From positions 14,448 through 78,447 of the forward strand of contig JAVKIY010000004.1 of NCBI GenBank assembly GCA_031459235.1: a DNA stretch of 64,000 nt, in the 5' to 3' direction. Of the stretch, positions 1 through 17,109 are shown piece by piece; position 1 is the stretch's first letter, and every line of letters begins with the position of its first letter. The DNA is from Candidatus Fervidifonticultor tertius (GTDB taxonomy: Bacteria; Sysuimicrobiota; Sysuimicrobiia; Sysuimicrobiales; Humicultoraceae). The position numbers were made by a program, and so were the translations under genes. Under the pieces are notes generated by a model. The model was not told the origin of the DNA, made no database searches, and saw only the letters and a list, made by a program, of their open reading frames with translations.

Positions 1-1156
1 CGGTGAGTACCGGGTGAAGAGCGCGCACCTGATCCCGTTGCACGGCCGGGCGTTGCGCGCGCTCGGCGGGTTCCGCGCGTGGCAGGTACGGCACGTTCCG
101 CGCGAGGAAAACGCCGCCGCGGACGCGCTGGCGAACCGCGCGCTGGATGAGGCCGCGGGCGCAGGCGCGACCCCACGCCATCGGGGCGCGCGGGCCGGGC
201 AGGCCACGCCACCAGGCTCGGGGGCCACGGCGCGGGGCCCGCGAGCTGGTGGCGCGAGCCCGCGCAGCCGGTCGGCCGTGTTCGACCACCTGTGCCGCGG
301 CCTGACGCGCGTGGCCCGCGGGCTGCGCGGCACGCTCGGCCTCGGCCTCAAGACCACATGGGACGGTGCCGAGTTCTACCTCGATCCCGACCGGCCGTTT
401 CCCATGGCCAGCGTCTTCAAGGTGCCTGTGCTCCTCGAGCTGCTGATGCAGGCCGAGGAAGGTCGGTTACGCCTCGAGGAGACCATCGCGCTGGACGAGG
501 CGATGAAGGCGCCAGGCTCCGGCGTGCTCAAGGAGCTGACGTCGCGACCCGCGCTCAGCCTGCGCGATCTGGCGCTCTTGATGATCATCATCAGCGACAA
601 CACCGCGACGGATATCCTGGTGCAGCGCGTGGGCACCGACGCGATCAACCGCCGGCTGGCCGGGTGGGGATTCGCCGTCACGCGCGTGGTCGTGGACTGC
701 CGCGCGCTCCTCTTCGACCTGGCGGGCCGGCCTGTCGGCGCCTCCGGGCCCGAGGCGCGTTTCGAGGTGGAGCGTCTCCTGAAGACCGCGCCGCGGGTGT
801 TCACCGGGCGTGCCTACGCGGCCACCGGGACCAACGTCACCACGCCGCGCGAGATGACCGCGCTGCTCGAGATGCTCGTCTCGCCCGGCCGGCTGCCCGA
901 GGGGGTCCGCGCGCAGGCGCTCGACATCCTGCGGCGCCAGCAGGTGCGCGACCGCCTGCCGCTATACCTCCCGCCGAGCGCCGAGATCGCCCACAAGACC
1001 GGGTCGATCGCCGGCGTGCGCAACGACGCTGGTATCCTGTTCGTCCCGCCCGGGCCCGCGCTGATCTGCGCGTTCGCGCGCGACCTCGAGAGCGACCTGG
1101 CGGGCAGCGCCGCCATCGCCGAGATCGGCCGCCTCGTCTACCAGGCGTACGCGTAG
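1..1156 (+). CDS. 5'-truncated ORF: C-terminal end of an RNase H-like domain continuing in frame into a class A beta-lactamase-like serine hydrolase domain (the hydrolase might instead start independently at GTG 278)
   Basis: Frame 2 is open from base 2 to TAG 1154-1156. The first ~45 aa (..WQVRHVPREENAAADALANRALDEA) resemble the conserved C-terminus of RNase HI-type domains. The rest carries the class A beta-lactamase motifs S-x-x-K (ASVFKV), S-D-N (ISDNTATD) and K-T-G (HKTGSI). No signal peptide is visible. Confidence 0.7.
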   Translation, partial: GEYRVKSAHLIPLHGRALRALGGFRAWQVRHVPREENAAADALANRALDEAAGAGATPRHRGARAGQATPPGSGATARGPRAGGASPRSRSAVFDHLCRGLTRVARGLRGTLGLGLKTTWDGAEFYLDPDRPFPMASVFKVPVLLELLMQAEEGRLRLEETIALDEAMKAPGSGVLKELTSRPALSLRDLALLMIIISDNTATDILVQRVGTDAINRRLAGWGFAVTRVVVDCRALLFDLAGRPVGASGPEARFEVERLLKTAPRVFTGRAYAATGTNVTTPREMTALLEMLVSPGRLPEGVRAQALDILRRQQVRDRLPLYLPPSAEIAHKTGSIAGVRNDAGILFVPPGPALICAFARDLESDLAGSAAIAEIGRLVYQAYA

Positions 1157-1173
1157 GGCAAGAGGGAAGTGCG

Positions 1174-1746
1174 ATGATCAGGCCGCGCCTGCCCGGCTGC
1201 TGGCCGGTGCTCCTGCTGCCGGTCGCGCTGCTCGCCGCGACGTCGCTCGCGCCGGCCGCCGCAGCCGACCCCTCCACGGCCCCGTGGACCACGTTTCGTC
1301 ATCCGGTCTACGGGTTTGCGGTGAGCCATCCGCACGCGTGGGAGACGCTGAGCGGCGAGGGCCGTGCCGCCTTCGCGGCCATGGGCCCGCCGGCCGCGGG
1401 CGCCTCGGGGCTCCGGCTCAGCGTGGTCGTGGCCACCGGCCCGGTGCCTGCGGGCGCGTCCATCGAACAGGCCGACGCCGAGGTCCAGCAGCTCCTGGCC
1501 GGCCAGTCCGGGACCGTGCGCGTGCTGCGCCGCGATCGCATCGATCTGCGCGGCGTGCCATCGTTTATTCTCTACATGGCGCGGACCACTCCCACGGGGC
1601 AGCAGCTCTATCAAATGGTGCTCGTCGTGATCCACCGTGGCCGCGGCTACGCGGTGGTCGGGACGACCGCCGCGGCGTCCACCAACCTGGCCGAGGAAAC
1701 GCGTCTGTTGCAGCGCGTGCTCCTCACGTTCCAGCCCGGCACGTAG
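1174..1746 (+). CDS. secreted hypothetical protein (signal peptide, no domain I recognise)
   Basis: ATG 1174 is preceded by the purine-rich AGAGGGAAG. The N-terminus MIRPRLPGCWPVLLLPVALLAATSLAPAAAADP is a typical signal peptide. It shares a frame with track ORF 292..1746, whose upstream part overlaps the preceding gene and is Arg/Pro/Gly-rich. Confidence 0.6.
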   Translation: MIRPRLPGCWPVLLLPVALLAATSLAPAAAADPSTAPWTTFRHPVYGFAVSHPHAWETLSGEGRAAFAAMGPPAAGASGLRLSVVVATGPVPAGASIEQADAEVQQLLAGQSGTVRVLRRDRIDLRGVPSFILYMARTTPTGQQLYQMVLVVIHRGRGYAVVGTTAAASTNLAEETRLLQRVLLTFQPGT

Positions 1747-1774
1747 GCGTGGCCTGGCGCTGGCGACGGCGCCT

Positions 1775-1802
1775 TTGCGGTCCTGGACCCGGGTGTTACC
1801 AT
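1775..1802 (+). promoter_or_regulatory. candidate sigma-70-type promoter for the RNase P RNA gene
   Basis: TTGCGG (1775-1780), a 16-nt spacer, then TGtTACCAT (extended -10, TACCAT 1797-1802). The predicted start about 6-7 nt downstream coincides with the 5' end of the P1 helix at ~1808. Confidence 0.35.
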
Positions 1803-1807
1803 GGAGT

Positions 1808-2175
1808 GGGAGCAGGCCGGGCCGTCGCGGCGCCACTGACGCCGAGGAAAGTCCGGGCTCCGCAGGGCAGGGTGCTGGGTAACACCCAGCGGGGGCGACC
1901 CCAGGGACAGTGCCACAGAAAAACACCGCCAGCCGGGAAACCGGCCGGTAAGGGTGCAACGGCGGGGTAAGGGCCCGCCGGCGGCCCGGCGACGGGCCGG
2001 CCAGGCAAACCCCACCCGGAGCAAGGCCAGATAGGGGGAGATGAGGTGGCCCGCCGATCCCCGGGTAGGCTGCTCGAGGCCGCGGGCAACCGCTGGCCCT
2101 AGAGAGATGACCGCCGCGCCGCCGGCGCCGTTCAGGCGTTGCGGCGTACAGAACCCGGCTTACAGGCCTGCTCCC
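1808..2175 (+). ncRNA. rnpB: RNase P RNA (bacterial type A)
   Basis: Universally conserved blocks are present in the right order: GAGGAAAGTCCGGGCTCC (~1846), ACAGAAAAACA (~1914), GGTAAGGGTGCAAC (~1949) and ACAGAACCCGGCTTA (~2148). The 5' GGGAGCAGGCC (1808-1818) pairs perfectly with the 3' GGCCTGCTCCC (2165-2175) as helix P1. No credible protein ORF explains the region. Confidence 0.9.
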
Positions 2176-2185
2176 CGGCCGTTCG

Positions 2186-2212
2186 CCGCGCCGCGCGGCG
2201 CGGGTATCTTTC
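2186..2212. terminator. GC-rich hairpin plus T-rich tail between convergent rnpB and the DUF1343 gene
   Basis: CCGCGCC (2186-2192) pairs with GGCGCGG (2197-2203) around a 4-nt loop. It is followed by GTATCTTTC and sits exactly between the two convergent gene ends. Confidence 0.4.
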
Positions 2213-3428
2213 AGCGCTCTGGATAGAGGAGGAAGGCCGCCCGCAGCGCCTCGAAGCGGCGCAGGTCCGGTTCCCACCGGGCCGCGATGGCCGCGGCAGG
2301 CGCGCCGCGTTCGAGGTCCTTGCGCACGCGGTCGGTGCCCCAGACGAAGTCGAAGATCTGGCGTCCGTTGCGGGGTACGAACTGGAACCGCCGCGGGTGG
2401 AGCGCGCGCACCGCGGCGAGCACGTGAACCGCAGTGGTGGCGGGCCGGAAGCGCAGCGAATCGGTGATGCGCACGCGGACGCCGCTGTGCAGGCCACCGC
2501 GGATGACCGTCGCGTACGGCTCGAACGCCACGCCCGGTAGGCCAGCGGCGTTCAACCGCTCGGCCAGGCGCCGGCCGTCGAGCCACGGGCTGATGACCAG
2601 CTCGAACGGGTGCGGCGTGCCCACGCCGTTGGAGAGGTTCGTGCCGTCCAGTACGCCGGTGGCCGCGTAGTAGAACGGCGTGTGCATCGTCGGGATATTG
2701 GGCGACGGTCGGACCCACGGCAGGCCGGTCTCCTCCCAGGTCATACGCCGGGTCCAGCCCTTCATCGGCACGATCCCCAGGTCGGCGTTGAGGTCGAAGA
2801 CCGAGTTGAACATCCAGGCCAGCTCGCCGATGGTCATGCCGTGCACCATGGGGATCGGGAACATCCCGATGAACGACCGGTAGGCCGGGTCCAGCACCGT
2901 GCCGTCGACCTGTACGCCGCCCAGCGGGTTGGGGCGGTCGAGCACCACGACCGGCTTGCCCGCCTCCCGTGCCGCCTGCATCACCTGCGCCAGCGTGGAG
3001 GTGTACGTGTACGCCCGCGCACCGACGTCCTGCAGGTCCACCACGAAGACGTCGATGGCCGCCATCATCTCGGCGGTCGGCCGCCGCGTGGCGCTGTAGA
3101 GGCTGAAGACCGGGATGCGCCCGGCCACGTCGGGGACCGGCTGGCCCGCCGGGATCGTGCCCGCCAGGCCGTGTTCCGGCGCGAAGAGCGCCGCGACCGC
3201 AAAGCGCGGGTCGCGGAGGAGCACGCTCGCGGTCGGGTCGCCCGCGGCGGTCTGCCCCGCGGCGTGCGTGACCAAGCCGATCCGGCGCCCCTGCAGGAGG
3301 CCCGGAGACTCCAGCAGAATGTCCACGCCGGGTCGCGTCAGGCCCGGCGCCTGCGCCTGCGATTGCGCGATCAGGACGACGCCAAGCGCGACGGCAAGGG
3401 CGACGCGTGCCAGGATCCGCATGTGCAT
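2211..3428 (-). CDS. DUF1343 family protein (NamZ/YbbC-like exo-beta-N-acetylmuramidase), secreted
   Basis: Family-typical blocks: LFAPEHGL, IPVFSLYS..RRPT.EMM, IDVFVVDLQDVGARAYTYTSTL, VVLDRPNPLGG and PIPMVHGMTIGELA. I moved the start to ATG 3428 (MHMRILARVALAVALGVVLIAQSQAQA is a signal peptide). The upstream 61 codons of the track ORF are Arg/Pro-rich. Confidence 0.85.
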   Translation of the reverse strand: MHMRILARVALAVALGVVLIAQSQAQAPGLTRPGVDILLESPGLLQGRRIGLVTHAAGQTAAGDPTASVLLRDPRFAVAALFAPEHGLAGTIPAGQPVPDVAGRIPVFSLYSATRRPTAEMMAAIDVFVVDLQDVGARAYTYTSTLAQVMQAAREAGKPVVVLDRPNPLGGVQVDGTVLDPAYRSFIGMFPIPMVHGMTIGELAWMFNSVFDLNADLGIVPMKGWTRRMTWEETGLPWVRPSPNIPTMHTPFYYAATGVLDGTNLSNGVGTPHPFELVISPWLDGRRLAERLNAAGLPGVAFEPYATVIRGGLHSGVRVRITDSLRFRPATTAVHVLAAVRALHPRRFQFVPRNGRQIFDFVWGTDRVRKDLERGAPAAAIAARWEPDLRRFEALRAAFLLYPER

Positions 3429-3537
3429 AGGGTGATTCGGGTCGCCGCCGGCGACTCCTTGAGGGGCCGGCGGCGGACGGCGCCCGCGATAGCGCCGGTG
3501 GGCTGAGCCGGCAGTCCGCCACCCACGAGGCGGACGT

Positions 3538-5124
3538 GTGACCACGCTGACCGCCACACAACCCGCGGACGAAGGCCAGGGCGGCTTTCTGGCCGTGATG
3601 CGGCACCGCAACTACGCGCTGCTGTGGACCAGCCAGCTCATCTCGCACCTCGGCGACCGCTTCCACTGGGTGGCGATTTCGCTGTGGGTGTACGCCGAGA
3701 CCGGGTCGGCGCTGTCGGTCTCGTACGCCATCGTCGCCCTCATGGTCGCGCCCGCGCTCGTGGGGCTCTTCGCCGGCGCCGTGGCTGACCGGTATGACCG
3801 GCGGCGGATCATGATCGTCACCGACCTGCTCCGGGCCGTGCTGGTCGCCGCGATCCCGGCGTTGATGACGCGCGGGCTGCCGTGGGTGTACGGTGCGCTG
3901 TTCCTGATGTCGGCCGCCTCAGCGTTCTTCCGGCCGGCCATGTGGGCGGCGGTGCCGCAGTCGGTCCCTCGCGACCGGCTGCTGCAGGCGAACGCCTACT
4001 TTGCGTCACTCGAGTCCGCGGTGGAGGTCGTCGGCCCGGCGCTCGCCGGTCTGCTGGTTATGCGGTTCTCGTACGCGGCGGCGATGTACGTGGACGCGGT
4101 GAGCTACCTGGTGTCGGCGGTCCTTGTGGCGGGGATGAGACTGCCTCCGGTGGCTGGCCGGGGCGGCGGTGTGGTGGTAGTGGAGGGCCCGGGGGGGATT
4201 CTGGCGTCGATTCGGGAGGGGTTGCGGTACGTACGGGGGGATAGGATTCAGGTAGCGCTTTTGGCGCTGTTGCTTTTGGGTCAGTGGGTTGTCGGTCTGA
4301 GCTCCCTGCAGACGCCGCTGGCAAAGGGCGAGGTCGGCATCTCAGATCGTCAATTTGGCTGGTTCCAGAGTGTGTGGGGAGCGGGCTTCATCGCGGCATC
4401 AGTCGCAACCGCGTGGTTTGGCGGACGGGTTCCCACTGGACAGGCTATTGTCCTTGGCTACGCGCTTTGGGCGCTCGCCGCAGCCGCCATGGCCATGAGT
4501 GCTAATCTCGGGATGCTGGTGGTTACTGGATTCTGGGTGGGGTTCGCAAACATTCTGGTGTTCGTGAATGTTAGTACCTTGCTCATGGAGCACACCCCGT
4601 CAGATAGGCTCGGTCGGGCGATAACCCTACGCCAGATCGGCGTTGCCATCGTTCGCGTGAGCGCTCTACTCGGGTTCGGATGGATGGCGGATCTCGTCGG
4701 GGTAAGAGAAGCGATACTTGCAATGGCTTGGCTCGCTCTCGCTGGTACCACTATCGCAACGTTACGCTTCCCTGCCTTGTGGCGGTACTCGAGCAATCCC
4801 GTTCGCTCCGTGCCGCGCAGCCACAGTGGAACGTATCTTCCGTTGCTTCGGCAACTTGGGGAACCCTCGATCTCCAGGGCGGTGCTCCGGCTTGCAGGGG
4901 CGCACGTCGATCAAGAGTTCGCACATGATGAGCAGAGGTGGCTCAACGCGGCCTGCCTTGTCATCGTGACGGTTGGCTGGCTAGTGCTGGCGTTCCACTC
5001 CCCGGGCCCTGCCGCCGCCGTCGCAGGTTCAGCGTGGGCTGCGACCATCGTTCCGCGCTTGCTACAGGCTTGGTGGCGACGCAGATCAGCCAGGGCCGCG
5101 GAGCGTCACCGTCTGCCTGCCTAG
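3538..5124 (+). CDS. MFS transporter with a ~110-aa C-terminal extension
   Basis: N-terminal LWTSQLISHLGDRFHWVAISLWVY and DRYDRRRIM loop motifs, with about 12 hydrophobic segments. Nucleotide composition changes abruptly within the gene at ~4150-4260 (see findings). Confidence 0.85.
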   Translation: MTTLTATQPADEGQGGFLAVMRHRNYALLWTSQLISHLGDRFHWVAISLWVYAETGSALSVSYAIVALMVAPALVGLFAGAVADRYDRRRIMIVTDLLRAVLVAAIPALMTRGLPWVYGALFLMSAASAFFRPAMWAAVPQSVPRDRLLQANAYFASLESAVEVVGPALAGLLVMRFSYAAAMYVDAVSYLVSAVLVAGMRLPPVAGRGGGVVVVEGPGGILASIREGLRYVRGDRIQVALLALLLLGQWVVGLSSLQTPLAKGEVGISDRQFGWFQSVWGAGFIAASVATAWFGGRVPTGQAIVLGYALWALAAAAMAMSANLGMLVVTGFWVGFANILVFVNVSTLLMEHTPSDRLGRAITLRQIGVAIVRVSALLGFGWMADLVGVREAILAMAWLALAGTTIATLRFPALWRYSSNPVRSVPRSHSGTYLPLLRQLGEPSISRAVLRLAGAHVDQEFAHDEQRWLNAACLVIVTVGWLVLAFHSPGPAAAVAGSAWAATIVPRLLQAWWRRRSARAAERHRLPA

Positions 5125-5149
5125 CCCGTACTGTTTCGATTTATCGGCA

Positions 5150-5583
5150 AGCTCAAGGGCGTAGGCACAGTTTGGCAGCACACCGCCTGCGATGCGGCGT
5201 GCTCGTACGCCGTGGCCTGGGTCACCACCGAGGGCTCGGCCCGGGCGGCGGCCCGCTTCCTGCTCGACCGGATGCTGCCCGCCTACCGCGTCGCGGGCCG
5301 GGCGCTTCAGCGGGTCCTGACCGATCACGGCAGCGAGTACCAGGGCATCCGGCACTCGGATGCGCCCCCGCCACGCCGGGACCAACGCCTTCGTCGAACG
5401 TCTACCAAGCACCATCCTGGCCGAGCTGTGGCACATCGGCGCTTCTTCACGCGGGTGGGGACGATACAGGACGTCCTGAATCGCTACCTCGCCTTCTACA
5501 ACCACCAGCGCCCTCACCTTGGCTACCGGACCCGCGGCTGCAAGCCCGCCAAGGTGTTCATGCTCGCTCCGGAGGTGCACTGA
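5150..5583 (+). pseudogene. decayed DDE (rve/integrase-core) transposase, IS481/IS3-like, N-terminally truncated and frameshifted
   Basis: One frame gives VWQHTACDAACSYAVAWVT..AAARFL..RVLTDHGSEY and later LNRYLAFYNHQRPHLGYRTRG. The intervening conserved block RPRHAGTNAFVERLPSTILAELW is only readable in another frame (~5355-5430). At least two frameshifts are therefore present, and no HTH N-terminus is present. Confidence 0.7.
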
Positions 5584-5917
5584 TGGCCAACGACCTGGCA
5601 GCACCCTTCCGAGAATTGGACACCTAGCAGGACAATCATCGGTCAAGAGAATATACTAGTAGCACCGGACCGACAGCGGAGCAAGTGCGACACTCCACGT
5701 CGCGAACCGAACACGGATCGCCCCCACACCGCCACGAGACTTCGTGGCGAGGGGCACCTAGTCACCTCGCCTGTAGCAGGGCGCGAGACAGTGACGTTCT
5801 TTAAGGTGACAGGTGAAGGTCGTTCGCGCAATCCGCAACATGCTCAACCGAGGGCTGTTGTTGGGTGGGGACGTAGAGCTGTAGGCTGTCGGTCTGGTTC
5901 TCTTTTGTGGGGCACTC

Positions 5918-7222
5918 ATGCAAACGATCACCGGAGAGGTTCGGCTGCTGGTCCTTGCGGTCACAGCTGTGGCCACCATTGGGATTGTGGCGTTCTCCGA
6001 CCAGATCCGTTGGCAAGAGTGGCAGCAACTCGTACTATTCTTTTGCCTCATAGCTCTAGCATCATCGGTTAGAATCGCGGATCCACGGGGGCGTACGATC
6101 ACGCCCAGCACCGTGCTCACGTACTTGGCAATGTACGTCTTCAATGCTCCGACGGTCCTGCTCCTGGTCGCTGTCGGTCGAGCCGTGGGCTATTCCCTGG
6201 ATCGCGGCTGGGTCCCATGGCGCTCCATATTCAACGGAGCCCAGGTTGGGCTGAGCGCATCGGCAGGCGCGTACGTTTTTGGCTTGGTTAGCCAGGGGGC
6301 CGGACCTATCCCTGAGGCTCGGGTCTACGCGGCCGCCTTGATAGCGCCTCTCCTGCACCAGACACTCAACAATCTATTCGTGGCAATAGGCGTCAGCCGG
6401 TGGCGCGGCACACCCTTCGTGAACACATGGTATGCTGGAGTTCAAGCGCTCTTCTGGCCGAATCTCCTGAGCATCCCAACCGCATTCGTACTGGCAATCC
6501 TGTACGTGCGCGTGCATCACGCGGTTACCCTTGCGTATCTGGCTCTTCTGCCATTCCAGTGGATGGCGCTTAGACTCTACGTGCGACGCCGTGAGTTGTA
6601 TGCGCAGATAGTTGATGGGCTCGTTGTGGCAGCCGACGCTAACTTCCCTCTCGGCAAGGGGCATGCACGACGCGTTGCGGAACTCGCGGTCGCGGTTGCA
6701 CGGGAGATGCGTCTCGGGGAAGCGGTCATCGAGTCTGTCCAGTTCGCCGCGCAGCTTCATGATGTCGGAATGATCGGCAAGGACGATCTGTTGGATCGCC
6801 CCGTTCTCACTGCCGAGGAGGTACGTAGCCTTGAGGATCACGTAAAGGTCGGTGCGGAGATTGCCAGGGAACTGCCGCGCAGAGAGATTGCTGAGGCGAT
6901 CCTGTATCACCACGAGCGATTCGATGGCACAGGATATCCAGGTGGTCTCCGGGGTGAGGAAATACCGCTTGGTGCAAGGATTATTGCCCTGTGTGAGGCT
7001 GTAGACAGTATGCGGTCAGGAATGTTTCCGTTTGGCGCCGCAATGCCCTGGGGCGCAATTGTCTCTCTTGTTCAGGCCGAAGCCGGCCGAGCTTTCGACC
7101 CGGGCGTAGTCGACGCGTTCCTTCGGGCGGTTGCAGCTGGGACTGTTCACGCTCGACGCCGCGAACCGTCGAGTGAAGCCTTTTCCAGTACGGCGACGCT
7201 AGGGGGGATTCCCGTCCCATGA
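5918..7222 (+). CDS. polytopic membrane protein with C-terminal HD-GYP domain (divergent copy)
   Basis: About 230 aa of hydrophobic segments are followed by GHARRVAELAV, LHDVGMIG, DHVKVGAEI and YHHERFDGTGYPGGLRGEEIPLGARI. It lacks the HDxGK lysine and the downstream DRPYR motif found in its neighbour. Confidence 0.85.
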   Translation: MQTITGEVRLLVLAVTAVATIGIVAFSDQIRWQEWQQLVLFFCLIALASSVRIADPRGRTITPSTVLTYLAMYVFNAPTVLLLVAVGRAVGYSLDRGWVPWRSIFNGAQVGLSASAGAYVFGLVSQGAGPIPEARVYAAALIAPLLHQTLNNLFVAIGVSRWRGTPFVNTWYAGVQALFWPNLLSIPTAFVLAILYVRVHHAVTLAYLALLPFQWMALRLYVRRRELYAQIVDGLVVAADANFPLGKGHARRVAELAVAVAREMRLGEAVIESVQFAAQLHDVGMIGKDDLLDRPVLTAEEVRSLEDHVKVGAEIARELPRREIAEAILYHHERFDGTGYPGGLRGEEIPLGARIIALCEAVDSMRSGMFPFGAAMPWGAIVSLVQAEAGRAFDPGVVDAFLRAVAAGTVHARRREPSSEAFSSTATLGGIPVP

Positions 7223-8448
7223 TCGACCGAACGGGACTCCTTCGCCTCTGGCCACTCTTGGTCGTAGGTGGCGCGATTGGAGTGGCATTGCCTGGCGGTA
7301 CCCAATCTGATCCGTGGGCAGTCGCGCTCTTTACGGCCCTCGGCGTGGCCTGCGAGTGGCTGGAGATTCGCTTAGGCCCGCTTGGATTCCTGACGCTTCG
7401 GCCAATGGTCGCCTTTGTTGCGCTGTGGCGCGGTGGACTATCAGCGTACATGGTCGTTGGACTAATTTCGGTAATAGCAGCACAACTGCTTGCTCGCAGG
7501 CGTTCTTTCGTGGAGGTAATCGATGAAGCGGGCCGGGAAGTCGTGGCACTGGGGTTGTCCTCTGTAGCCTACAGCAACATCGCCGGGTCACCTGGGGTGG
7601 CGCTCTCCGCCGTCGCACATCGACTGCTTGCCGGGGCGGTTGTGATGTTGGTCTACTGGGGCACTAAGCTGGCACTTCGTGTTGCCCAACTCAGTCATGC
7701 CGAGGGTATGCGCCCTCAGCAGGCGGCACGAAGCCTGCTGCGTCATGCGTGGCCGCACCTTATCGTAATGATTGCTGGGGCAGTCGGGCTGAGCTTCATT
7801 GAGAGTGACTTGGGTCTTGTGGTGACAGGTCTCGCCGCCGTCATGTTTATCGAGGCCTACTACCCCTGGAAACTCTTGGGCGAGCAAGGTGGTGTATTGC
7901 TTACCAGCCTACAAATGATGGCCCAGGCCGTTGATCTCAAGGATCCTTACACATCAAATCACTCGCAGCGTGTGTCCAGGTACGCCGTCCGCCTAGCGCG
8001 CACCATGGGTCTTCCCGAGGAAGAGGTTGAGCGTATCCGCATTGGGGCTCTGATGCACGACATAGGGAAGATCGGCATCAGCGGGCGCATTATACGTAAG
8101 CCTGGTAGGCTCAGTCCGGAGGAGCGTGTGAAGATGCAGCAGCATTCGGCAGTGAGCGCGGACATTATCGAGCCCTTGGAGATCCTCGGCGAGTCCGCTA
8201 GAATGGTCCGGCATCACCACGAGAACTGGGACGGCACCGGCTACCCAGCGGGCTTGAGAGGCGAGGAGATTCCTCTCGGATCCCGGATTATCCTCGTTGC
8301 AGACGCTTTTGACGCGCTTGTGACGGATAGGCCCTATAGAAAGGGCGCGAGCCGGCCCGAGGCTCTCAATGTCATTCGGAAGCACGCTGGCACGCAGTTC
8401 GATCCTGTAGTCGTTCGCGCTCTGGAGAGAGTGTACACTTCGCTCTGA
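7219..8448 (+). CDS. polytopic membrane protein with canonical HD-GYP domain (cyclic-dinucleotide phosphodiesterase family)
   Basis: Motifs HSQRVSRYAV, LMHDIGKIG, HHHENWDGTGYPAGLRGEEIPLGSRI and DAFDALVTDRPYRKG. ATG 7219 overlaps the stop of the upstream paralogue (ATGA). Confidence 0.9.
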   Translation: MIDRTGLLRLWPLLVVGGAIGVALPGGTQSDPWAVALFTALGVACEWLEIRLGPLGFLTLRPMVAFVALWRGGLSAYMVVGLISVIAAQLLARRRSFVEVIDEAGREVVALGLSSVAYSNIAGSPGVALSAVAHRLLAGAVVMLVYWGTKLALRVAQLSHAEGMRPQQAARSLLRHAWPHLIVMIAGAVGLSFIESDLGLVVTGLAAVMFIEAYYPWKLLGEQGGVLLTSLQMMAQAVDLKDPYTSNHSQRVSRYAVRLARTMGLPEEEVERIRIGALMHDIGKIGISGRIIRKPGRLSPEERVKMQQHSAVSADIIEPLEILGESARMVRHHHENWDGTGYPAGLRGEEIPLGSRIILVADAFDALVTDRPYRKGASRPEALNVIRKHAGTQFDPVVVRALERVYTSL

Positions 8449-8463
8449 GAGCTTTCAGACGCG

Positions 8464-8493
8464 TTGGACCCTGTAGAGGTAGTGCGGGATACT
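8464..8493 (+). promoter_or_regulatory. candidate promoter for the SARP/NTPase/TPR gene
   Basis: TTGGAC (8464-8469), an 18-nt spacer, then GATACT (8488-8493). A strong RBS AAGGAG (8504-8509) lies 6 nt before ATG 8516. Confidence 0.3.
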
Positions 8494-8515
8494 CATAGGT
8501 CCGAAGGAGTGGGCG

Positions 8516-11500
8516 ATGTCCAAGGCCATCGTCAGGCTCTTTGGAGCGTTTGAGTTCCTTGTCGGCGGCCGGCCAGTGGATCTTCACACTGCGCAGGCGC
8601 GTTTTGTGGCCTATCTCGCACTAGTTCGTGGGCGCCCCGTAGCCCGACAGGCAATTTGGGGTGCCCTGTGGTCGGAATTATCGGACGAGCGGGCCCGATC
8701 GAATCTCAGTAACATCATATGGCGGTTGCGTCAGACACTTTTGCGCCACGGGATCCCAGAAAGCGCGCTTAGGGTCGACACTAATACAGTCTCGCTGGAT
8801 TCGCGGCTGATACAATCCGACGTCAACATGTTTTTGCGGGATTTGTTGCCCCAAGATAGTCCGTACGCGTCGCTTGAAACACTCGCCCGTGCCGCGGCTG
8901 CGTTGAAGCTCTATAGGGGAGACTTGTTAGCCGATTGGGATGTCGAATGGTGCGTCGCCGAGAGAGAGCTACTGCGTCAGCGGTACGTGGATACACTTCG
9001 GTGCCTTGCCGCCGCGTTCGAGAAGCGCGGGAGAGTAGACTTGGCTCTGCGGTACGGACGCAAGGCGGTGGAGATGGATCCGCTGAACGAGGAACTGGCT
9101 AGGCTGCTAATGAGGCTGTTCATTGAATCGGGCAATCGCACGTCGGCCCTGGCGTTCTATCGACGCTTTGCGGCCGACCTTCGCAGGGAGCTTGGGGTCG
9201 CGCCTGACGAGGAGACCCAGGCGCTTGTCGCCGCTCTTGTCCAGCGTCAGGTTACCCCGATCGGAGCACGCGGTACCAACTGTGTTGATCCGTTGCAGTC
9301 GGCGGTGGCGCTAGTCGGTAGAGACGGCGAGAGGCTACTCATCGCATCAATGATGGAGAGCGCGATCACCCGGAAGGGGGGCGGGATTCTTCTGGCTGGT
9401 GAGCCCGGCATTGGGAAGACCAGGCTCGTGGAGTGGGCCATGGAAGACTGGGTGGCGCGAGGGGGCGCCGTTTCCGCTGCTCGCTGCATTGAGTTCGCTG
9501 AGCCCATTCCGTACCAAGTGCTGTTCGACGCCGTCGGGAGGCGGTCTGCGCAACCATCGTTGTCTCCGTCCGAGGGAGGCTCAACAATGGCGGTCACAAC
9601 GGCGTCTCCTGGTGCGAGTGTCAACAGCGAGATGCCGGGCGAAGTCTGGGCGCAGGAGCGACCCTTCCATAAGCTGAGGCTGCTTGAGTGGTTTCGGGCC
9701 TCCCTGTGGGCGGCCGCGGAGCAGAGACCCCTGCTTCTCGCACTTGAGGATCTGCAGTGGGCGGATGCCGATAGCTTGGATGCCATTGTTTACCTGCTTG
9801 CGCATGCGAGGCGAGCACCGGTACTTCTGCTGCTGACGGCACGCCGTCCCGCCACCTTGTCAGTTGAATCCTACCTCGATAAGCTTCAAAGATATGCGCT
9901 CCACACCGTCAGGCTGCCCCGGCTATCCGGACTCGAAACACGAACCCTTGTCGAGGGGTTGCTTCGAGGTAGAGCCGTTCCGCCGGCGTTCGCAACCTGG
10001 ATTCATGCGGAAACTGAGGGGAATCCACTGTTCGTGGTCGAGACGCTTCGCCTTCTTGAGCAGAAAGGAGATCTGGGAAGTCTGCTTGCAGGGCGCGCGC
10101 CCGAGCCGCTACTAGCCGGGATGACGAAACCTGTGGTGCCAGAGGGAATTCGGTTTTCGATTCAGCAGAGACTTCAACTGCTCGACACGGAATCCTTGAG
10201 AGTAGCCCAAATTGCGTCCATAGCCGGGCGTAGTGTGGATCCACAGCTTCTTGCAGCGGCGAGCGGCGTTTCAAGCAACGAACTGGCCCGGATTCTTCAA
10301 ACCTTGATGCAAGTCGGGATTCTTGAACGCAGCGAGGATAAGCTTCGGTTCTCACATGACAAGATACGTGCGGTCTGCTACGAGACCATTCCGGTGGCAC
10401 TCCTTCAGACGTGCCACGCGCAGTGGGCTAGAACACTCGTGCAGGGTCAGGACGCCTCACCACAAGATGTCGCTTGGCACTGGCAGTCCGCAGGACAGTG
10501 GGCGGAGGCCTGCGTCTATTGGGAGCTTGCCGGAGATGACGCAATGCGCCTTCATGCCTACGAAACGGCCGTTTGCAGCTATCGGTTGGGGCTACAGTGT
10601 TTGCTCAGGGTGCGGGTGGATAGCGACGGCGAAAGGTTTCCACTCAGGATACGACTTCTGCTCAAGTGTGAGCATGCCATGACACACCTTGGCATGCCCA
10701 ATGAGAGACGTGCTGCCTTGAGGGAAGCTCGGTCCCTGATCACACGCGGCCGCCTGTCCGCTCTTGAGCCCTGTTGGTACCTACGGAAGGGCCTACTTGA
10801 AGAACACGTTGGTGACTTCGGCATGGCAGTGAGGTTCGCGCGGAGGTCTTGGGCGCTAGCTCGTTCTATTGGGGATTGCGCTGTCGAGGCCGAAGCACTA
10901 CGCTTGATGGCTATCGCCCTCAGCCGCGGTGGGCGTGAAAAGCGGGCGCGGGCCGTGTCCGCCCTTGCACTCAGGAGGGTAGGAAGCCGCCCCACACGCT
11001 CAAGAGTCGCCGCCTTAACCGACGCCGCGATTGTGCATCTACGACTCGGTGAGTACGATCGGGCTCTTGCCCATGTTGGCGAGGCGCGGGCAGCTATTGT
11101 TGAGCTCGGTGACGACGACGGTTACCTAGTCTCATTGACCGAGGCTGCGATTCAGAAGCGTGTGGGGGAGGTCGAGCCAGCGCGCCTGAACTGTGTAAGG
11201 GCATTGCGAGAGTCAAGCGCGAGGTCGGAAGCAGTATCAACAGCGCGAATTCGCTTTCAGTTGGCAACTCTCGATGCACTCGAGGGCAGGCTTGCCGACT
11301 CCTTGACGAACCTCAGGCACGCCCGGTCCACTCTCCGATCCGCCGGCTACTCCCGCATGTACGCCGCATGCCTCAACGAGATCGCCTACGGTGTCGGCCG
11401 CCTGCTCGGGAACTACCACTGGGCCTGGCGCGCGTCCGAGCAGGCCCTCGAGCTGTCCCGTGCCTACCGGAGCGCGCACGCGACCGCGATTTACCTCGAC

Positions 11501-12220
11501 ACCCAGGCGCAACTCCTCCTGGAGATGGACCGCGTCGAGGAGGCCCAGAAGGTCATCGACGAGGCCATCGCGCTGCTCGGCGAAGAGCTGACGTCCACGG
11601 GACAGTTCGCAGAGTCGCTGGCCCGTCGCGGCATGGTCTACCTCCGCGCCGGCGACCTGCCGCGGGCCATTGAGGACCTGGAAGCGGCGCGGCGCGCGCA
11701 GACGCACCGCGGCGAGAAGCTCCACCTGCCTGACACGCTCACGAGCCTGGCGATGGCGTACGCACTCCTGGGCGACGCGGATCGCGCGGTGGAGGCCTCG
11801 ACCGAGGCGCTGCGCGTGCTGGCGGCGGTCCGGGGCGTCAACCACCAGCCGCAGCGCATCCTGTGGAACCACTACAAGATCCTGGCGCGCTTCGACCGGC
11901 AGCCGCGCCTCCCGTTTCTGCGCCGCGCGGTGCGGTCGATCGAGGCGCAGGCCGCCAGGCTGACCCGCGCGCAGGCGCGTCGTTTCCGCACGTGGGTTCC
12001 GGTCAACCGCGAGATCCTCGACGCGTGGGCCGAGCTGAACATGCCGGCGGCCGCCGGTGCCGAGCCGGAGGTGGACGCGCCTGCGGCGCTGGCGGGGTTC
12101 GAGATCCCCGACGCGCAGGCCGCGGCCCTCGAAGCCGAGGGGCGGCGGGCGCGGCTGGTTGCGGCGCCCGCGCGGTTTGAAACCTCGGAGCCGCCGGCGC
12201 CCTCGTTGAGAGTACCGTAA
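8516..12220 (+). CDS. large SARP/AfsR-type regulator: winged-helix DNA-binding domain + BTAD + P-loop NTPase (AAA_16/STAND-like) + long TPR-like C-terminal region
   Basis: The N-terminus VRLFGAFEFLVGGRPVDL..ARFVAYLAL..NLSNIIWRLRQTL is an OmpR/SARP wHTH. LYRGDLLADW..ELLRQRY..ALRYGRKAVEMDPLNEEL..LMRLF..GNRTSALAFYRRF is a BTAD. Walker A is LLAGEPGIGKTRLVEW (~9398-9421) and Walker B-like is LLLALEDLQWAD. The C-terminal ~600 aa are Ala/Leu/Arg-rich helical repeats. Confidence 0.85.
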   Translation: MSKAIVRLFGAFEFLVGGRPVDLHTAQARFVAYLALVRGRPVARQAIWGALWSELSDERARSNLSNIIWRLRQTLLRHGIPESALRVDTNTVSLDSRLIQSDVNMFLRDLLPQDSPYASLETLARAAAALKLYRGDLLADWDVEWCVAERELLRQRYVDTLRCLAAAFEKRGRVDLALRYGRKAVEMDPLNEELARLLMRLFIESGNRTSALAFYRRFAADLRRELGVAPDEETQALVAALVQRQVTPIGARGTNCVDPLQSAVALVGRDGERLLIASMMESAITRKGGGILLAGEPGIGKTRLVEWAMEDWVARGGAVSAARCIEFAEPIPYQVLFDAVGRRSAQPSLSPSEGGSTMAVTTASPGASVNSEMPGEVWAQERPFHKLRLLEWFRASLWAAAEQRPLLLALEDLQWADADSLDAIVYLLAHARRAPVLLLLTARRPATLSVESYLDKLQRYALHTVRLPRLSGLETRTLVEGLLRGRAVPPAFATWIHAETEGNPLFVVETLRLLEQKGDLGSLLAGRAPEPLLAGMTKPVVPEGIRFSIQQRLQLLDTESLRVAQIASIAGRSVDPQLLAAASGVSSNELARILQTLMQVGILERSEDKLRFSHDKIRAVCYETIPVALLQTCHAQWARTLVQGQDASPQDVAWHWQSAGQWAEACVYWELAGDDAMRLHAYETAVCSYRLGLQCLLRVRVDSDGERFPLRIRLLLKCEHAMTHLGMPNERRAALREARSLITRGRLSALEPCWYLRKGLLEEHVGDFGMAVRFARRSWALARSIGDCAVEAEALRLMAIALSRGGREKRARAVSALALRRVGSRPTRSRVAALTDAAIVHLRLGEYDRALAHVGEARAAIVELGDDDGYLVSLTEAAIQKRVGEVEPARLNCVRALRESSARSEAVSTARIRFQLATLDALEGRLADSLTNLRHARSTLRSAGYSRMYAACLNEIAYGVGRLLGNYHWAWRASEQALELSRAYRSAHATAIYLDTQAQLLLEMDRVEEAQKVIDEAIALLGEELTSTGQFAESLARRGMVYLRAGDLPRAIEDLEAARRAQTHRGEKLHLPDTLTSLAMAYALLGDADRAVEASTEALRVLAAVRGVNHQPQRILWNHYKILARFDRQPRLPFLRRAVRSIEAQAARLTRAQARRFRTWVPVNREILDAWAELNMPAAAGAEPEVDAPAALAGFEIPDAQAAALEAEGRRARLVAAPARFETSEPPAPSLRVP

Positions 12221-12266
12221 GAGCACCGGCGCCTACCGTCCGATTATCCAGGCACGTCGAGGGCGG

Positions 12267-13013
12267 GTGATCGGGATGGGGGGCGTGGTCACGGCGCGCT
12301 TTCTGGTCGACCGGCCGATTCGTCAGGGCATGGTCCGGGCGATCCTGGATACCCTGACCGCGCAGGGCGGTTACTACGAGCCGCACCTGATCCGGCGGTC
12401 CGCAGATGACGGCGACCGTCGCATCTTCTGGGGCCGGCCGGCGGGGTTGCTGGACGACGTCGCGCAGGGGCCGGACGCGACCTTCCTGCGCGTTGCCGAA
12501 GGCCTGGCGGAGCCGGTGCTGACGTTCCGCATCAGTCCCTCGCCTCGGGCGTTGCCGAGCGTGGTTACGCTGCGGCTCCCGGCGGAAGCGCTCGCGAGCA
12601 CCCGCGACGTCGAGCAGCTTCTCGGCGTGGGTAAGGGGCTCTACCTGTTCCTGGAGTCGCCGTGGGGGACGATCGGCGCCGCATCCGCCGCCGACGGCGC
12701 GCCGCGGACCCTCCTCCAGTGGGCCACCTATGTCGGGCCGGAGACGGTCAGCCGCGCGGGACCGGCGCGCTTCCTGACCTCGCTGGCGTTCATCGTGGAG
12801 ATCCTGCCGGACGGCGGTGTCATGCTCGTTACCCACGCCTCGCCGTCGCTCGCGGAGACCGACGACGGGCGGGCGCTGCGCCGACACCTCGAGGACGCGA
12901 CGGGACTCGCGGACGCCCTGGGCGGTCTCGCCCGCCACGCGCCCCCTGACGGCGATGTGCCGCGCACGGCAGGGATCACCCGGAGGAGCCAGGGACCGTC
13001 CTCGCAGGTCTGA
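12267..13013 (+). CDS. hypothetical protein (248 aa), no domain recognised
   Basis: The ORF has a balanced amino-acid composition (D, E, F, Y, W present) and high third-position GC like neighbouring genes. Competing ORFs on the other strand and frames are Arg/Pro/Gly-rich. Confidence 0.55.
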   Translation: MIGMGGVVTARFLVDRPIRQGMVRAILDTLTAQGGYYEPHLIRRSADDGDRRIFWGRPAGLLDDVAQGPDATFLRVAEGLAEPVLTFRISPSPRALPSVVTLRLPAEALASTRDVEQLLGVGKGLYLFLESPWGTIGAASAADGAPRTLLQWATYVGPETVSRAGPARFLTSLAFIVEILPDGGVMLVTHASPSLAETDDGRALRRHLEDATGLADALGGLARHAPPDGDVPRTAGITRRSQGPSSQV

Positions 13014-13245
13014 CGGCCGTTTCCCCGGCGGGTCCCAGCGCCCTGACCCGGCGCGAGGGCTCTTCTTCCCGGCGACCACGCTGCAGTTGCATCTGACTTC
13101 CGCCACTAGATCTGGTGGCGTCGCACCTATTCACCCCCACATCTCCACGCTCGCTTTGGTGGCGCAAACCCGCATGGCGCATGGATTCCCGCCCGTGGTC
13201 TTCGCCGACTAATTTCGTGATTTTGAGGACTACGAGAAGGACTTC

Positions 13246-13291
13246 GTGGGAACATGGAGAATGGTGTGGGGCAAAGTGGGGAACTGTGGGG
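13246..13291 (+). promoter_or_regulatory. putative MraZ operator: phased GTGGG(G/A) direct repeats
   Basis: GTGGGG occurs at 13266-13271, 13276-13281 and 13286-13291 with exact 10-bp spacing, plus GTGGGA at 13246-13251. The last repeat directly abuts the mraZ ATG (13292). Confidence 0.6.
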
Positions 13292-13714
13292 ATGCTCAGA
13301 GGCGAGTACGAGTACGCGCTGGACGACAAAGGGCGCGTGGTAATCCCGACCAGGTTTCGCCGTGTGCTCGGTGACCAGGTCGTCGCCGCCCGCGGGCTCG
13401 ATCCGTGCGTCAGCATCTACTCGCCCGAGGGCTGGGCGAGGGTAGAGGAGGAGCTCGTCCAGCTCTCCACCGGCAAGCGCGACATCGTGCGGGTGATCCT
13501 GGCCAGCGCGGTGGACCTGGAACTTGACCGGCAGGGCCGCGTGACGCTGCCGGCGCGGCTTCGGCAGTACGCGGGGATCGACCGCGACGTCGTCGTCGTG
13601 GGACTGATCAGGCGGGTCGAGATCTGGAACCGGTCCGCGTGGGCGGCTTACATCGAGCGTGCACAGAAGGCGGCGTTGCAGATCGCGGAGCAGGTGGAGG
13701 GGTTGCGGCTGTAG
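13292..13714 (+). CDS. mraZ: transcriptional regulator MraZ
   Basis: MLRGEYEYALDDKGRVVIPTRFR plus a second DxxGR(V)xLP repeat (LDRQGRVTLPARLR). It is 141 aa and is the first gene of the dcw cluster. Confidence 0.95.
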   Translation: MLRGEYEYALDDKGRVVIPTRFRRVLGDQVVAARGLDPCVSIYSPEGWARVEEELVQLSTGKRDIVRVILASAVDLELDRQGRVTLPARLRQYAGIDRDVVVVGLIRRVEIWNRSAWAAYIERAQKAALQIAEQVEGLRL

Positions 13715-14826
13715 ACGCCGAGGGTATCGACGCCGGGCACGTCCCGGTGATGCGCGACGAGGTTCTGGCCTGGCTGGCCCCGAGGCCCGGCGGAGTGTAC
13801 GTGGACGCGACGATCGGGGCGGGAGGGCACGCGGAGGCGATCCTGCGGCGGATCGCCCCCGGGGGGCGGCTGATCGGGATCGACCGCGACGCCGAGGCGC
13901 TGGCGATCGCGGCGCGACGACTGGCTCCATACGCAGCATCGGTCACACTACGGCACGCCAACTTCACGGCTATCCGCCAGATCGTGGCGGAGGCCGGCGT
14001 CGAGACGGTGGACGGGATCGTCATGGATCTGGGGGCCTCATCGCTGCAGTTCGACGCGCCCGAGCGCGGGTTCAGCTTCTCGCGGCCTGGCCCGCTCGAC
14101 ATGCGCATGGACCGGTCGCAACCGACCACTGCGGCCGACCTGATCAATGGCCTCCCCGAGCGCGAGCTGGCCAATCTCATCCACCGGTATGGTGAGGAGC
14201 GATTCGCGCGCCGGATCGCCCGGGCGATCGTCCGGCGCCGGCCGATCCATACGACCACGGCGCTCGCCGATGCCGTCAGCGCCGCCATCCCGCGCCGCGC
14301 CTGGCCGCGGGGTCTCCACCCGGCGACGCGCACCTTCCAGGCGCTGCGTATCGCCACCAATCACGAGCTCGACGATCTGGAACGCGCACTGCCGGATGCC
14401 GTGGGGGCTCTCCGGGGGGGAGGTCGACTCTGCGTCATCACCTTCCACTCCCTGGAAGATCGAATCCTCAAACACACCTACCTGCGCCTCTCCCGTGGCT
14501 GCACCTGTCCTCCCGGGAGCCCCCTCTGCACCTGTGGCGGACGCCGCTGGCTGCGCGTGCTCACGCGCCGGCCGCTGACCCCGTCACCGAGCGAGATCGC
14601 GGCCAACCCGCGCGCCCGCAGCGCGAAGCTGCGGGTGGCGGAGCGGCTGGTCGACCCTGCCGTGCACGGCTCGAGGTTCCCAGATGCGCCGGAGGCCGGT
14701 CAACCTTGCGCTGATCCCACCCTCCCCACCGTCTCTCCTGACGTCGTCTCTCCGGCACCCGGCCTCCGGCGCTTGACCGTCCGTACGCGCTCCGGCGCGC
14801 GCCCGCGCGAGGGTCGGCGGCGATGA
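13639..14826 (+). CDS. rsmH: 16S rRNA (cytosine1402-N4)-methyltransferase RsmH; start codon uncertain
   Basis: Motifs HVPVMRDEVLAWL, YVDATIGAGGHAEAIL, DLGASSLQFD, FHSLEDRI and ANPRARSAKLRVAERL. The first canonical start in frame is GTG 13639, which overlaps mraZ by 76 nt (see finding). There is a ~60-aa low-complexity C-terminal tail. Confidence 0.9.
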   Translation: MGGLHRACTEGGVADRGAGGGVAAVDAEGIDAGHVPVMRDEVLAWLAPRPGGVYVDATIGAGGHAEAILRRIAPGGRLIGIDRDAEALAIAARRLAPYAASVTLRHANFTAIRQIVAEAGVETVDGIVMDLGASSLQFDAPERGFSFSRPGPLDMRMDRSQPTTAADLINGLPERELANLIHRYGEERFARRIARAIVRRRPIHTTTALADAVSAAIPRRAWPRGLHPATRTFQALRIATNHELDDLERALPDAVGALRGGGRLCVITFHSLEDRILKHTYLRLSRGCTCPPGSPLCTCGGRRWLRVLTRRPLTPSPSEIAANPRARSAKLRVAERLVDPAVHGSRFPDAPEAGQPCADPTLPTVSPDVVSPAPGLRRLTVRTRSGARPREGRRR

Positions 14827-15290
14827 TCGCCCCGCGTCCTCGCGCGCGCTTCTATCCCGTATGGCTGCCGGACGGCGCCGCGCGCCGGCAGCCGGTTGTT
14901 CGGCGTCGGCCGCGTCTGCACCCGATGGTCGGCGCGACGGTGATGGCGGTCCTTCTCACCCTGCCGGCGGTGCTGTACGTGTCGGTACGCGCGTACAGCG
15001 CCGAGGCCGGCTACACGATCCTGCGCCTGCAGCACGACCTCGCGCGCCTGCGCGCGGAACACGCGCGCCTGTCGCTGCAGGTGGCGGCCCTCAAAGCGCC
15101 GCAGAGGATCGAACGCTACGCCACCAAGGAGCTGGGGATGGCGCCGCCCCGCCAGTCCCAGCTCGCCACCATCACCGTCGGGCCGTCCATCGCGCGGGTC
15201 GAGGTTCCCGCCGGCGGAGGGGGCGTGTTCCGCACGGTCGTCGGGTGGTTCGGAGGAGGAGAGGCCGAGGCCCGCGAGCGACCGCGATGA
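14823..15290 (+). CDS. ftsL: cell division protein FtsL-like (small bitopic membrane protein)
   Basis: It lies between rsmH and the PBP gene. It has a single TM segment (ATVMAVLLTLPAVLYVSV) followed by a coiled-coil-like region (LRLQHDLARLRAEHARLSLQVAAL) and QRIERYA..LGM. ATGA overlaps occur at both ends. Confidence 0.75.
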   Translation: MIAPRPRARFYPVWLPDGAARRQPVVRRRPRLHPMVGATVMAVLLTLPAVLYVSVRAYSAEAGYTILRLQHDLARLRAEHARLSLQVAALKAPQRIERYATKELGMAPPRQSQLATITVGPSIARVEVPAGGGGVFRTVVGWFGGGEAEARERPR

Positions 15291-17083: not shown

Positions 17084-17098
17084 GCGCGTCGCGGCGCG

Positions 17099-17109
17099 TA
17101 CTATAGAAT
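17099..17109 (+). promoter_or_regulatory. AT-rich -10-like element (TACTATAGAAT) in the ftsI-murE gap; possible internal dcw promoter
   Basis: It is the only AT-rich patch in the 53-nt gap. TAGAAT (17104-17109) lies 27 nt upstream of the murE ATG. No good -35 is present (TAGGCG at 17081). Confidence 0.25.

Follow-up and report, generated by a model that had tools for sequence, protein, structure and literature searches.

The specificity groups of the staphylococcal agr system are shared across lineages. These groups (I–IV) are defined by a hypervariable region that runs from within agrB across agrD into agrC (PMC12312760). A locus that has its closest analogue in logic in agr is described here from a 64,000-nt stretch of contig JAVKIY010000004.1 (hereafter the window, to whose full length all coordinates refer), which belongs to a metagenome-assembled genome (MAG) of the candidate phylum CSP1-3 (Sysuimicrobiota). 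In this window, a block of about 7 kb with low guanine plus cytosine (GC) content starts inside a gene coding for a transporter of the major facilitator superfamily (MFS), covers two genes for HD-GYP phosphodiesterases (HD1 and HD2), and ends inside the gene of a SARP-type regulator. The block is probably one allele, here named A, of a long-lived multi-allelic cassette that is exchanged by double crossover at conserved motifs. As in agr, discrete and deeply diverged allele classes are found on conserved flanks, the edges fall inside two open reading frames (ORFs), and the encoded signalling partners would be co-adapted. Classes shared across species were found here as well, with the flank type of the sister-species class II resting on short contig ends. 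The components differ, however, with MFS, HD-GYP, and SARP/STAND proteins taking the place of the peptidase, peptide, and histidine kinase of agr. Furthermore, no gene for a signal precursor or synthase was recognised in the cassette by gene calling or by Pfam and NCBIfam searches. To our knowledge, a 30-point drop of silent-site GC has not been reported as a defining feature of agr.

Other described systems share single aspects with this locus. In the comQXP system of Bacillus, comQ, comX, and the sensor-encoding part of comP are polymorphic, the kinase part of comP and comA are conserved, and the alleles are exchanged by recombination. With one boundary inside an ORF and swapped alleles, comQXP provides a lead rather than a test for the present case, which differs in belonging to another pathway and in having no pheromone gene. 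O-antigen and capsule replacement islands occupy the same slot, are replaced by double crossover in the flanks, are typically lower in GC than the genome, and coexist in many versions within one population. They resemble the present locus in slot swapping, in a GC content below that of the genome, and in the occurrence of several versions in one population. However, these islands consist of non-orthologous genes for surface structures, whereas every allele described here carries the same four orthologues in the same order, with inner-membrane or cytoplasmic signalling products and with boundaries inside rather than between genes. Mosaic genes such as the pneumococcal pbp genes likewise have breakpoints within intact ORFs and segments that differ in their identity to relatives, but these were imported recently, under drug selection and over stretches of variable length, whereas the present cassette has fixed ends, contains four genes, and falls into classes that appear to be old and to cross species. 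Finally, recombination and GC content are reported to be positively linked in most bacteria, be it by GC-biased gene conversion or by selection that recombination renders more effective, and regions with less recombination should have a lower GC content at third codon positions (GC3; PMC4450053, PMC11879095). Published data show this as a weak correlation over whole genomes, whereas here the signal would be a step of about 0.3 in silent-site GC within single genes, with an inferred link to recombination.

Annotation of the locus was based on Pfam, NCBIfam, PADLOC, and Rfam searches and on gene calls on matching contigs (numbered L001 and onward). The gene order is NamZ, MFS transporter, HD1, HD2, regulator, and a conserved protein of 245 amino acids (P245), followed by mraZ and the dcw cluster. 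The cassette itself comprises the C-terminal half of the MFS gene, a remnant of an insertion sequence (IS), a leader RNA, both HD-GYP genes, and residues 1–931 of the regulator, whose residues 932–1234 belong to the GC-rich flank:

2211–3428, minus strand: NamZ exo-beta-N-acetylmuramidase, the GC-rich left flank gene (Pfam NamZ_N and NamZ_C; also called in L001 and L005)
3538–5124, plus strand: MFS_3/DHA3-type transporter, 528 amino acids, mosaic (Pfam MFS_1/MFS_3, NCBIfam), with a GC-rich N-domain (3538–4122), a transitional part (4123–4266), and the cassette-encoded C-domain and tail (4267–5124)
4237–4266, plus strand: left junction 30-mer, common to alleles A and B, located in the conserved central-loop motif SIREGLRYVRGDRIQVALLA of MFS; the alleles diverge from 4267 on
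4267–11309, plus strand: cassette, allele A of class I, GC content 0.605
5918–7222, plus strand: HD1, membrane HD-GYP phosphodiesterase, 434 amino acids, with a MASE9-like transmembrane N-terminus (Pfam HD_5, HD, MASE9)
7219–8448, plus strand: HD2, second membrane HD-GYP phosphodiesterase, 409 amino acids (Pfam HD_5, HD)
8516–12220, plus strand: regulator, 1234 amino acids, BTAD (SARP), AAA_16 (STAND NTPase), and TPR domains, mosaic (Pfam)
11310–11339, plus strand: right junction 30-mer, common to alleles A and B, located in the conserved TPR motif FQLATLDALEGRL..LRHARSTLR
12276–13013, plus strand: P245, GC-rich right flank gene in front of mraZ and dcw (gene calls)

The GC content of the cassette contrasts with 0.736 over the rest of the 64-kb window, where the mean of 500-nt windows is also 0.736 (standard deviation 0.031, minimum 0.64). 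In a sliding profile the GC content falls from 0.71–0.75 outside to 0.56–0.64 between about 4200 and 11400, and a partial rebound to 0.68–0.70 at 4950–5550 is due to a GC-rich transposase fragment inside the block. A second block of such GC content was not found by the 500-nt scan of the whole window; the only other 500-nt windows below 0.66 lie at about 13001–13500, upstream of mraZ, and at about 45251–45750 (0.64 and 0.65, respectively). Within the MFS ORF, GC3 drops from 0.93 to 0.68 with a maximum-likelihood change point at nt 4123 (2-log-likelihood support interval 4105–4144; likelihood-ratio test statistic, LRT, 50.5), and within the regulator ORF it rises from 0.63 to 0.91 with a change point at nt 11279 (support interval 11276–11339; LRT 98.1). 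At four-fold degenerate sites, the flanks have a GC content of 0.89–0.94 (NamZ 0.93), whereas all four genes of the block are uniform at 0.61–0.63, with overall values of 0.91 and 0.62, respectively, so that silent-site GC falls from about 0.92 to 0.62 within ORFs that are unbroken and collinear with their homologues. This pattern is far beyond chance. A sequence-only reading of the same window had described a lower-GC block at 4150–11340 with both edges inside intact, in-frame ORFs; GC, GC3, and four-fold sites all bear this out, the GC3 steps are present at both positions, and the proposed boundaries are correct to about 50–150 nt. Transcription-linked deamination was rejected as a cause of the low GC content, since the positive GC skew seen in the sliding profile vanishes at the four-fold sites of the block genes, which are free of strand skew; the skew therefore stems from amino acid usage.

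Two alleles of this block occur on shared flanks. Sequencing run SRR27730047 contained one contig of 7103 nt (L007, allele A), which corresponds exactly to window positions 4237–11339, and another of 6573 nt (L013, allele B), which has the same first and last 30 nt as L007 but a very different interior. The right-flank contig of this run (L012) starts with the last 30-mer of both. Logan contigs are built from k=31 unitigs, and the shared 30-nt ends therefore represent a graph bubble, that is, two alleles on shared flanks in one sample. In another run, contig L008 joins the left flank of the window to allele B with a break exactly at 4267, showing 8 mismatches to the window in the 2.2 kb up to 4266 and an identity of about 65% from 4267 on. 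The flanks of A- and B-bearing strains are about 99.7% identical in nucleotides, and NamZ and the MFS N-domain are 100% identical as proteins, as opposed to 58% for the C-terminal part of MFS, 67% for HD1, 58% for HD2, and 40% for regulator residues 1–931. By domain, A and B share 69% identity in the MFS C-domain and 38% in the MFS C-tail, 39% in the transmembrane sensor and 80% in the catalytic domain of HD2, and 38–44% throughout the N-terminal part of the regulator. Synonymous differences between the two alleles are saturated (proportion of differing synonymous sites 0.75–0.81), and the distance from A to B equals that from A to other genera whose NamZ is only 67–79% identical. Allele B (GC content 0.60) nevertheless has the same gene order and the same domains. 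A full-length regulator of allele B was absent from the protein search, which reached only a contig-cut part of 933 amino acids via HD2. The coexistence of collinear, deeply diverged alleles on shared flanks identifies the block as a recombination unit ending inside two intact genes and not as a simple insertion, in line with the sequence-only reading.

Both ends of the cassette are fixed at motifs that stand out in the codon alignments as islands of nucleotide conservation between otherwise unlike alleles. On the left, the SIREGLRYVRGDRIQVALLA motif belongs to the central loop that links the two domains of the MFS fold, and on the right the switch falls into the conserved TPR motif FQLATLDALEGRL..LR.A. 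Homologous crossovers can occur at these motifs, and the chimeric proteins formed there would likely remain functional. At the right end, the GC3 change point and the allele break coincide within the support interval. The segment 4123–4266, which covers the indel-rich central loop of the MFS transporter, has an intermediate GC content at four-fold sites (0.77) and does not differ between strains with allele A and those with allele B, and crossovers may have occurred there in earlier times.

The joins between block and flanks recur in independent assemblies, an NCBI MAG and separate per-run Logan assemblies identified through exact-protein lookups. Logan contig L001 (run SRR27730039) covers positions 2152–12817 including both joins with 1 mismatch, and a 175-kb contig of NCBI MAG GCA_031081715.1 (L005) covers positions 1–18448, again including both joins, with 7 mismatches. 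Contigs from further runs (L002–L004 and L006) cross the right join with 0 or 1 mismatch, and the identity of these contigs to the window amounts to 99.96–100%. In a related species, contigs obtained in other studies cross both homologous joins (L011) or the left one (L009), and contig L085 likewise crosses a homologous join in a relative.

This sister species is represented by L009, L011, and L033, which derive from JGI/ENA samples of other studies and carry class I cassettes with 76% nucleotide identity to allele A. Their flanks are about 90% identical to the window in nucleotides over NamZ and the N-terminal part of MFS, and about 86% over the full aligned flank stretch; the TPR region of the regulator beyond the cassette (residues 932–1150) is 96% identical. 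The GC steps are the same and lie at MFS residue 261 and regulator residue 942. When the two halves of each mosaic gene were compared separately, the refuting condition of the sequence-only reading, shared nearest relatives at similar identity, came out mixed: the closest relatives of the two halves coincide, while the identities differ (93–94% against 79–80% for MFS and 87% against 72–74% for the regulator). Cassettes of a second class (class II) were found in contigs L014 (SRR30649429) and L083, L085, and L086 (SRR358123xx and an ENA assembly), which are 75–77% identical to allele B and to each other. They end at the same two boundaries and carry sister-species flank sequence where the junctions are reached: the 69-nt 5′ end of L085, consisting of about 45 nt of flank and junction zone and the start of the cassette, matches the flank of L011, as do the last 30 nt of L083. 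Both allele classes thus occur in both species, and coexisting alleles were read from contig ends in three independent datasets.

A neighbour-joining tree of HD1 and HD2 (771 columns, bootstrapped) grouped class I (window, L009, L082, and L011) and class II (L013, L014, and L083) as sister clades, with 100% bootstrap support for each class and for the two together relative to all remaining lineages. The species of the window separates from the sister species in both classes, and at a similar depth (76% nucleotide identity between A and its sister-species counterpart A′, 75–77% between B and C or D). This is the pattern expected of a trans-species polymorphism, which suggests that the classes arose before the two species separated. 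Independent cassette switching of this kind seems to take place in a distant soil sub-clade (L060–L067), whose members have NamZ proteins that are 93–99% identical and yet HD1 proteins with only 65–81% identity; in JGI soil contigs L060, L061, L062, L065, and L067, HD1 and HD2 are 59–81% identical and low GC extends over the entire MFS gene.

The low GC content is not restricted to the alleles of the two species. The order NamZ, MFS, HD1, HD2, regulator, P245, and mraZ is conserved through the clade, and synteny from NamZ to the regulator extends down to 40% MFS identity. In a survey of 42 CSP1-3 loci with at least one flank, some of them near-duplicates, the HD1-HD2 core lies on average 0.10 below the flanks in GC content, and the dip amounts to at least 0.08 in 30 of the 42. 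Cassette GC (0.52–0.64) is weakly related to flank GC (0.53–0.74; r 0.31, slope 0.22), and all six alleles seen fall between 0.59 and 0.61. The nearest relatives have flanks of 0.72–0.74 and show the same step at the same place. Across genera, the composition steps are found at MFS residues of about 63–73, 196–261, 336, and 418–455, and at regulator residues 922–942, 1064–1078, and 1229. Absence or patchiness of the segment, as known for islands, was not seen in close relatives, which keep the synteny and the same low-GC segment. The comparison indicates that low silent-site GC is an old property of the locus and not the trace of a recent import from a lower-GC relative.

Block and flanks also differ in their rates of evolution. 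Between the window and L011, the synonymous rate (dS) is 1.0–1.3 in the block and 0.20–0.51 in the flanks, and the non-synonymous rate (dN) is raised in step, with dN/dS values of 0.08–0.14 in the block and 0.11–0.30 in the flanks; L009 and L011 give the same rate picture. Substitutions of both kinds thus accumulated 2.5–4 times faster in the block, and the similar dN/dS ratios show that its genes are under purifying selection and not decaying. When four-fold-site changes in L009 and L011 were polarised with the window as a (saturated) outgroup, the block showed 90 changes from G or C to A or T (S>W) and 47 in the opposite direction (W>S), and its per-site S>W rate, subject to the same saturation, was 2.3 times that of the flanks. 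This S>W excess, which is only suggestive, is the opposite of amelioration.

According to the favoured interpretation, whole cassettes would pass between strains by double homologous crossover in the two conserved stretches, with the consequence that both border genes stay in frame. Classes I and II would predate the species split and be kept by balancing, frequency-dependent selection on a co-adapted signalling module. With a divergence too great for recombination between the classes within the cassette, they would escape the recombination-linked force that drives silent sites to a GC content of about 0.9, for which biased gene conversion (PMC4450053) and selection of increased efficacy (PMC11879095) are the two candidates. 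The silent sites of the block would then settle near 0.62, closer to mutational equilibrium, and evolve faster. This last part, low GC through escape from a recombination-linked drive, is the weakest step of the argument and is regarded as somewhat doubtful.

Of the two origins offered by the sequence-only reading, an assembly chimera between two populations would agree with the source of the window, a MAG, and with the assembly graph of one run, which branches exactly at both junctions. This branching arises because the two alleles share their flanks, however, and, to the extent that assemblies can tell, the chimera is refuted by the unbroken course of L001 and of the NCBI MAG contig across both junctions, by the further runs across the right junction, and by the same joins in the sister species, which were assembled in other studies with other assemblers; its probability is negligible. 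The second origin, a one-off homologous replacement of a GC-rich interval by the allele of a lower-GC relative, with the GC content being that of the donor, would produce sharp composition steps within intact ORFs; replacement of the cassette at these points does happen, and some members of the clade are low in GC (e.g., the flanks of L059/L070 at 0.53). Yet flanks just as rich in GC and the same step are seen in the nearest relatives, no relative was found with a C-terminal half closer than its N-terminal half, and the changes polarised with the saturated outgroup gave no W>S excess of the kind left by amelioration. Since all alleles (at about 0.60) and most of the 42 loci, down to 40% MFS identity, are low in GC, a lower-GC donor does not explain the composition, and this origin is highly improbable. 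A locus-specific mutation regime, either raised or AT-biased, or selection for AT-rich DNA or rare codons (e.g., for silencing or slow translation), with recombination being incidental, is quite improbable as well. It could explain why dS and dN are both increased 2.5–4 fold at unchanged dN/dS, why the per-site S>W rate is elevated, and why the dip accompanies this operon throughout the clade. It cannot generate saturated divergence beside flanks that are 99.7% identical, however, and the steps lie inside ORFs instead of at promoters or terminators, shift between genera, and match the allele boundaries here, with none of the strand asymmetry at four-fold sites that transcription-linked deamination would cause.

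Repeated introgression of the cassette into both species from an unsampled, fairly close lineage, with only transient coexistence of the alleles, is likewise an unlikely explanation. The difference of about 0.3% between the flanks of A- and B-bearing strains implies that their present combination is recent, no donor or intermediate was found among the sampled lineages, and the conserved motifs would steer independent crossovers to the same sites. On the other hand, no sampled lineage is closer to either of classes I and II than the other class (100% bootstrap support), each class mirrors the species split at similar depth (76% vs. 75–77%), and coexisting alleles, as seen from contig ends, occur in three independent datasets. 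Several points weigh against the favoured interpretation of a long-lived cassette exchanged by double crossover. Balancing selection is deduced from tree shape alone, and a similar tree would result if a close, unsampled lineage had contributed the cassette repeatedly by introgression. Class II is seen attached to sister-species flanks in 30–70 nt at contig ends only, and no contig runs from allele B into the right flank, where the join consists of the shared 30-mer. On the left the two boundaries are offset, the GC3 change point at 4123 preceding the A/B break at 4267 by about 140 nt. The link between low GC and recombination is conjectural, little or no dip is present in L051, L053, L059, L068, and L070, the high dS of the block could partly be an effect of strong GC3 constraint in the flanks, and the S>W excess was polarised with a saturated outgroup and has the same direction in the flanks.

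In addition to its protein-coding genes, the cassette contains three features between the MFS gene and HD1:

5085–5625, plus strand: decayed, frameshifted DDE transposase fragment (IS481/IS3-like), GC content 0.68, with the motifs LTDHGSEYQG, TNAFVERL, and YNHQRPH
5629–5657, plus strand: promoter-like site AGGACA-17-TATACT (1 site vs. 0.0 expected from shuffles)
5664–5898, plus strand: structured 5′ leader RNA of the HD-GYP operon, about 235 nt, conserved upstream of HD1 in 32 loci

In all alleles and in the 32 loci, conservation of the leader far exceeds that of the coding DNA around it (e.g., L008 3140–3375, L011 2247–2482, L013 948–1183, L021 8035–8267, and L030 11729–11960), with a shorter form of about 195 nt in more distant loci. 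It is closed by a near-invariant 14-bp helix (ACCGGACCGACAGC / GCUGUCGGUCUGGU), with a U-rich tract behind it that lies about 20 nt ahead of the ATG, and it adopts a multi-helix fold whose internal helices covary. In the alignment, 86.9% of the cells are paired as compared to 31–49% in slid controls, and the covariation score of 0.176 (vs. 0.131) was reached by none of 500 shuffles. RNAalifold recovered only helices P1 and P2 from mixed long and short leaders, and a fuller structure from the long-form subset. A known riboswitch upstream of the HD-GYP genes was rejected, as Rfam gave no match at E ≤ 1 on either strand of positions 3000–14000, and a simple scan of positions 5000–6000 detected no terminator-like site. 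The leader is a candidate for a new cis-regulatory RNA or riboswitch. The promoter-like site ends 6 nt before the first helix of the leader and its −10 element is conserved in close relatives; from its position, the leader would start at or near the transcription start. The transposase fragment, which has a weak match to rve_3 (E 0.005, not reaching the Pfam cut-off), contributes the final 12 codons of the MFS ORF. It occurs only in this allele lineage and is absent from L009, L011, and L013.

No tRNA gene is present in positions 1–16000, and neither border repeats nor an intact integrase were found at the block; the only transposase trace is the internal, allele-specific, GC-rich remnant, and the borders bear no signature of mobility. 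With neither tRNA genes nor border repeats, an integrative element was rejected. A defence system was rejected too, as PADLOC produced only weak cross-matches of the HD domains to Cas3/Cas10, and none for MFS, the regulator, or P245. P245 has no known domain and no match in Pfam, NCBIfam, or PADLOC, and is syntenic in L011, L021, L030, and L071. An exact-protein lookup gave no match for the MFS transporter, whereas those for the regulator and HD2 did. The accessions of the MAG and of the runs gave no match in a literature search. An origin from actinomycetes, which the sequence-only reading implied by its framing of the dcw and SARP genes, was rejected because the matches are named Armatimonadota or Candidatus Fervidifonticultor; the clade carries the NCBI label Armatimonadota, and its relatives of the latter name correspond to CSP1-3/Sysuimicrobiota. 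Two loci of the CSP1-3 type were deposited as MAGs of a “Nitrospiraceae bacterium” (L016, JBPKLU010000014.1) and an “Ignavibacteriae bacterium” (L032, JACPVN010000187.1), and these public labels are probably binning or labelling errors. A second, paralogous copy of the regulator gene is found in some relatives, in tandem behind the first copy in some cases and upstream of MFS in others (L025 4558–8076 and 8211–11336, L059/L070 5622–9260, and L068 1016–1834), and the regulator of the module has therefore been duplicated or rearranged in places.

In its most far-reaching form, the comparison with agr would make this locus a “specificity haplotype” system, in which two or more co-adapted versions of the transporter, the cyclic di-GMP phosphodiesterases, and the STAND regulator are balanced across speciation, their recombinational isolation from each other has lowered silent-site GC from about 0.92 to about 0.62 inside single genes, and a new class of leader RNA, possibly a riboswitch, controls the operon. 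This combination of claims is put forward as a tentative possibility and is, taken as a whole, doubtful. If it were true, the locus would be a natural experiment that ties the high GC content of these genomes to ongoing homologous recombination.

What appeared to be a foreign island or a chimera is now documented as an allelic cassette, apparently old and trans-species, in a little-known uncultivated phylum, and its exact crossover points can be read in assembly graphs. Sharp intragenic GC steps in MAGs thus need not indicate binning or assembly errors. Since genome, expression level, and reading frame are common to its halves of high and low GC, the locus lends itself exceptionally well to distinguishing whether GC content is shaped by recombination-linked forces, mutation bias, or codon selection, and it also contains a candidate new structured RNA. 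For the biology of CSP1-3, the locus represents a conserved signalling module of four genes, adjacent to the cell-division cluster, and the diversity of this module would be actively maintained, which hints at strain-level recognition or an arms race.

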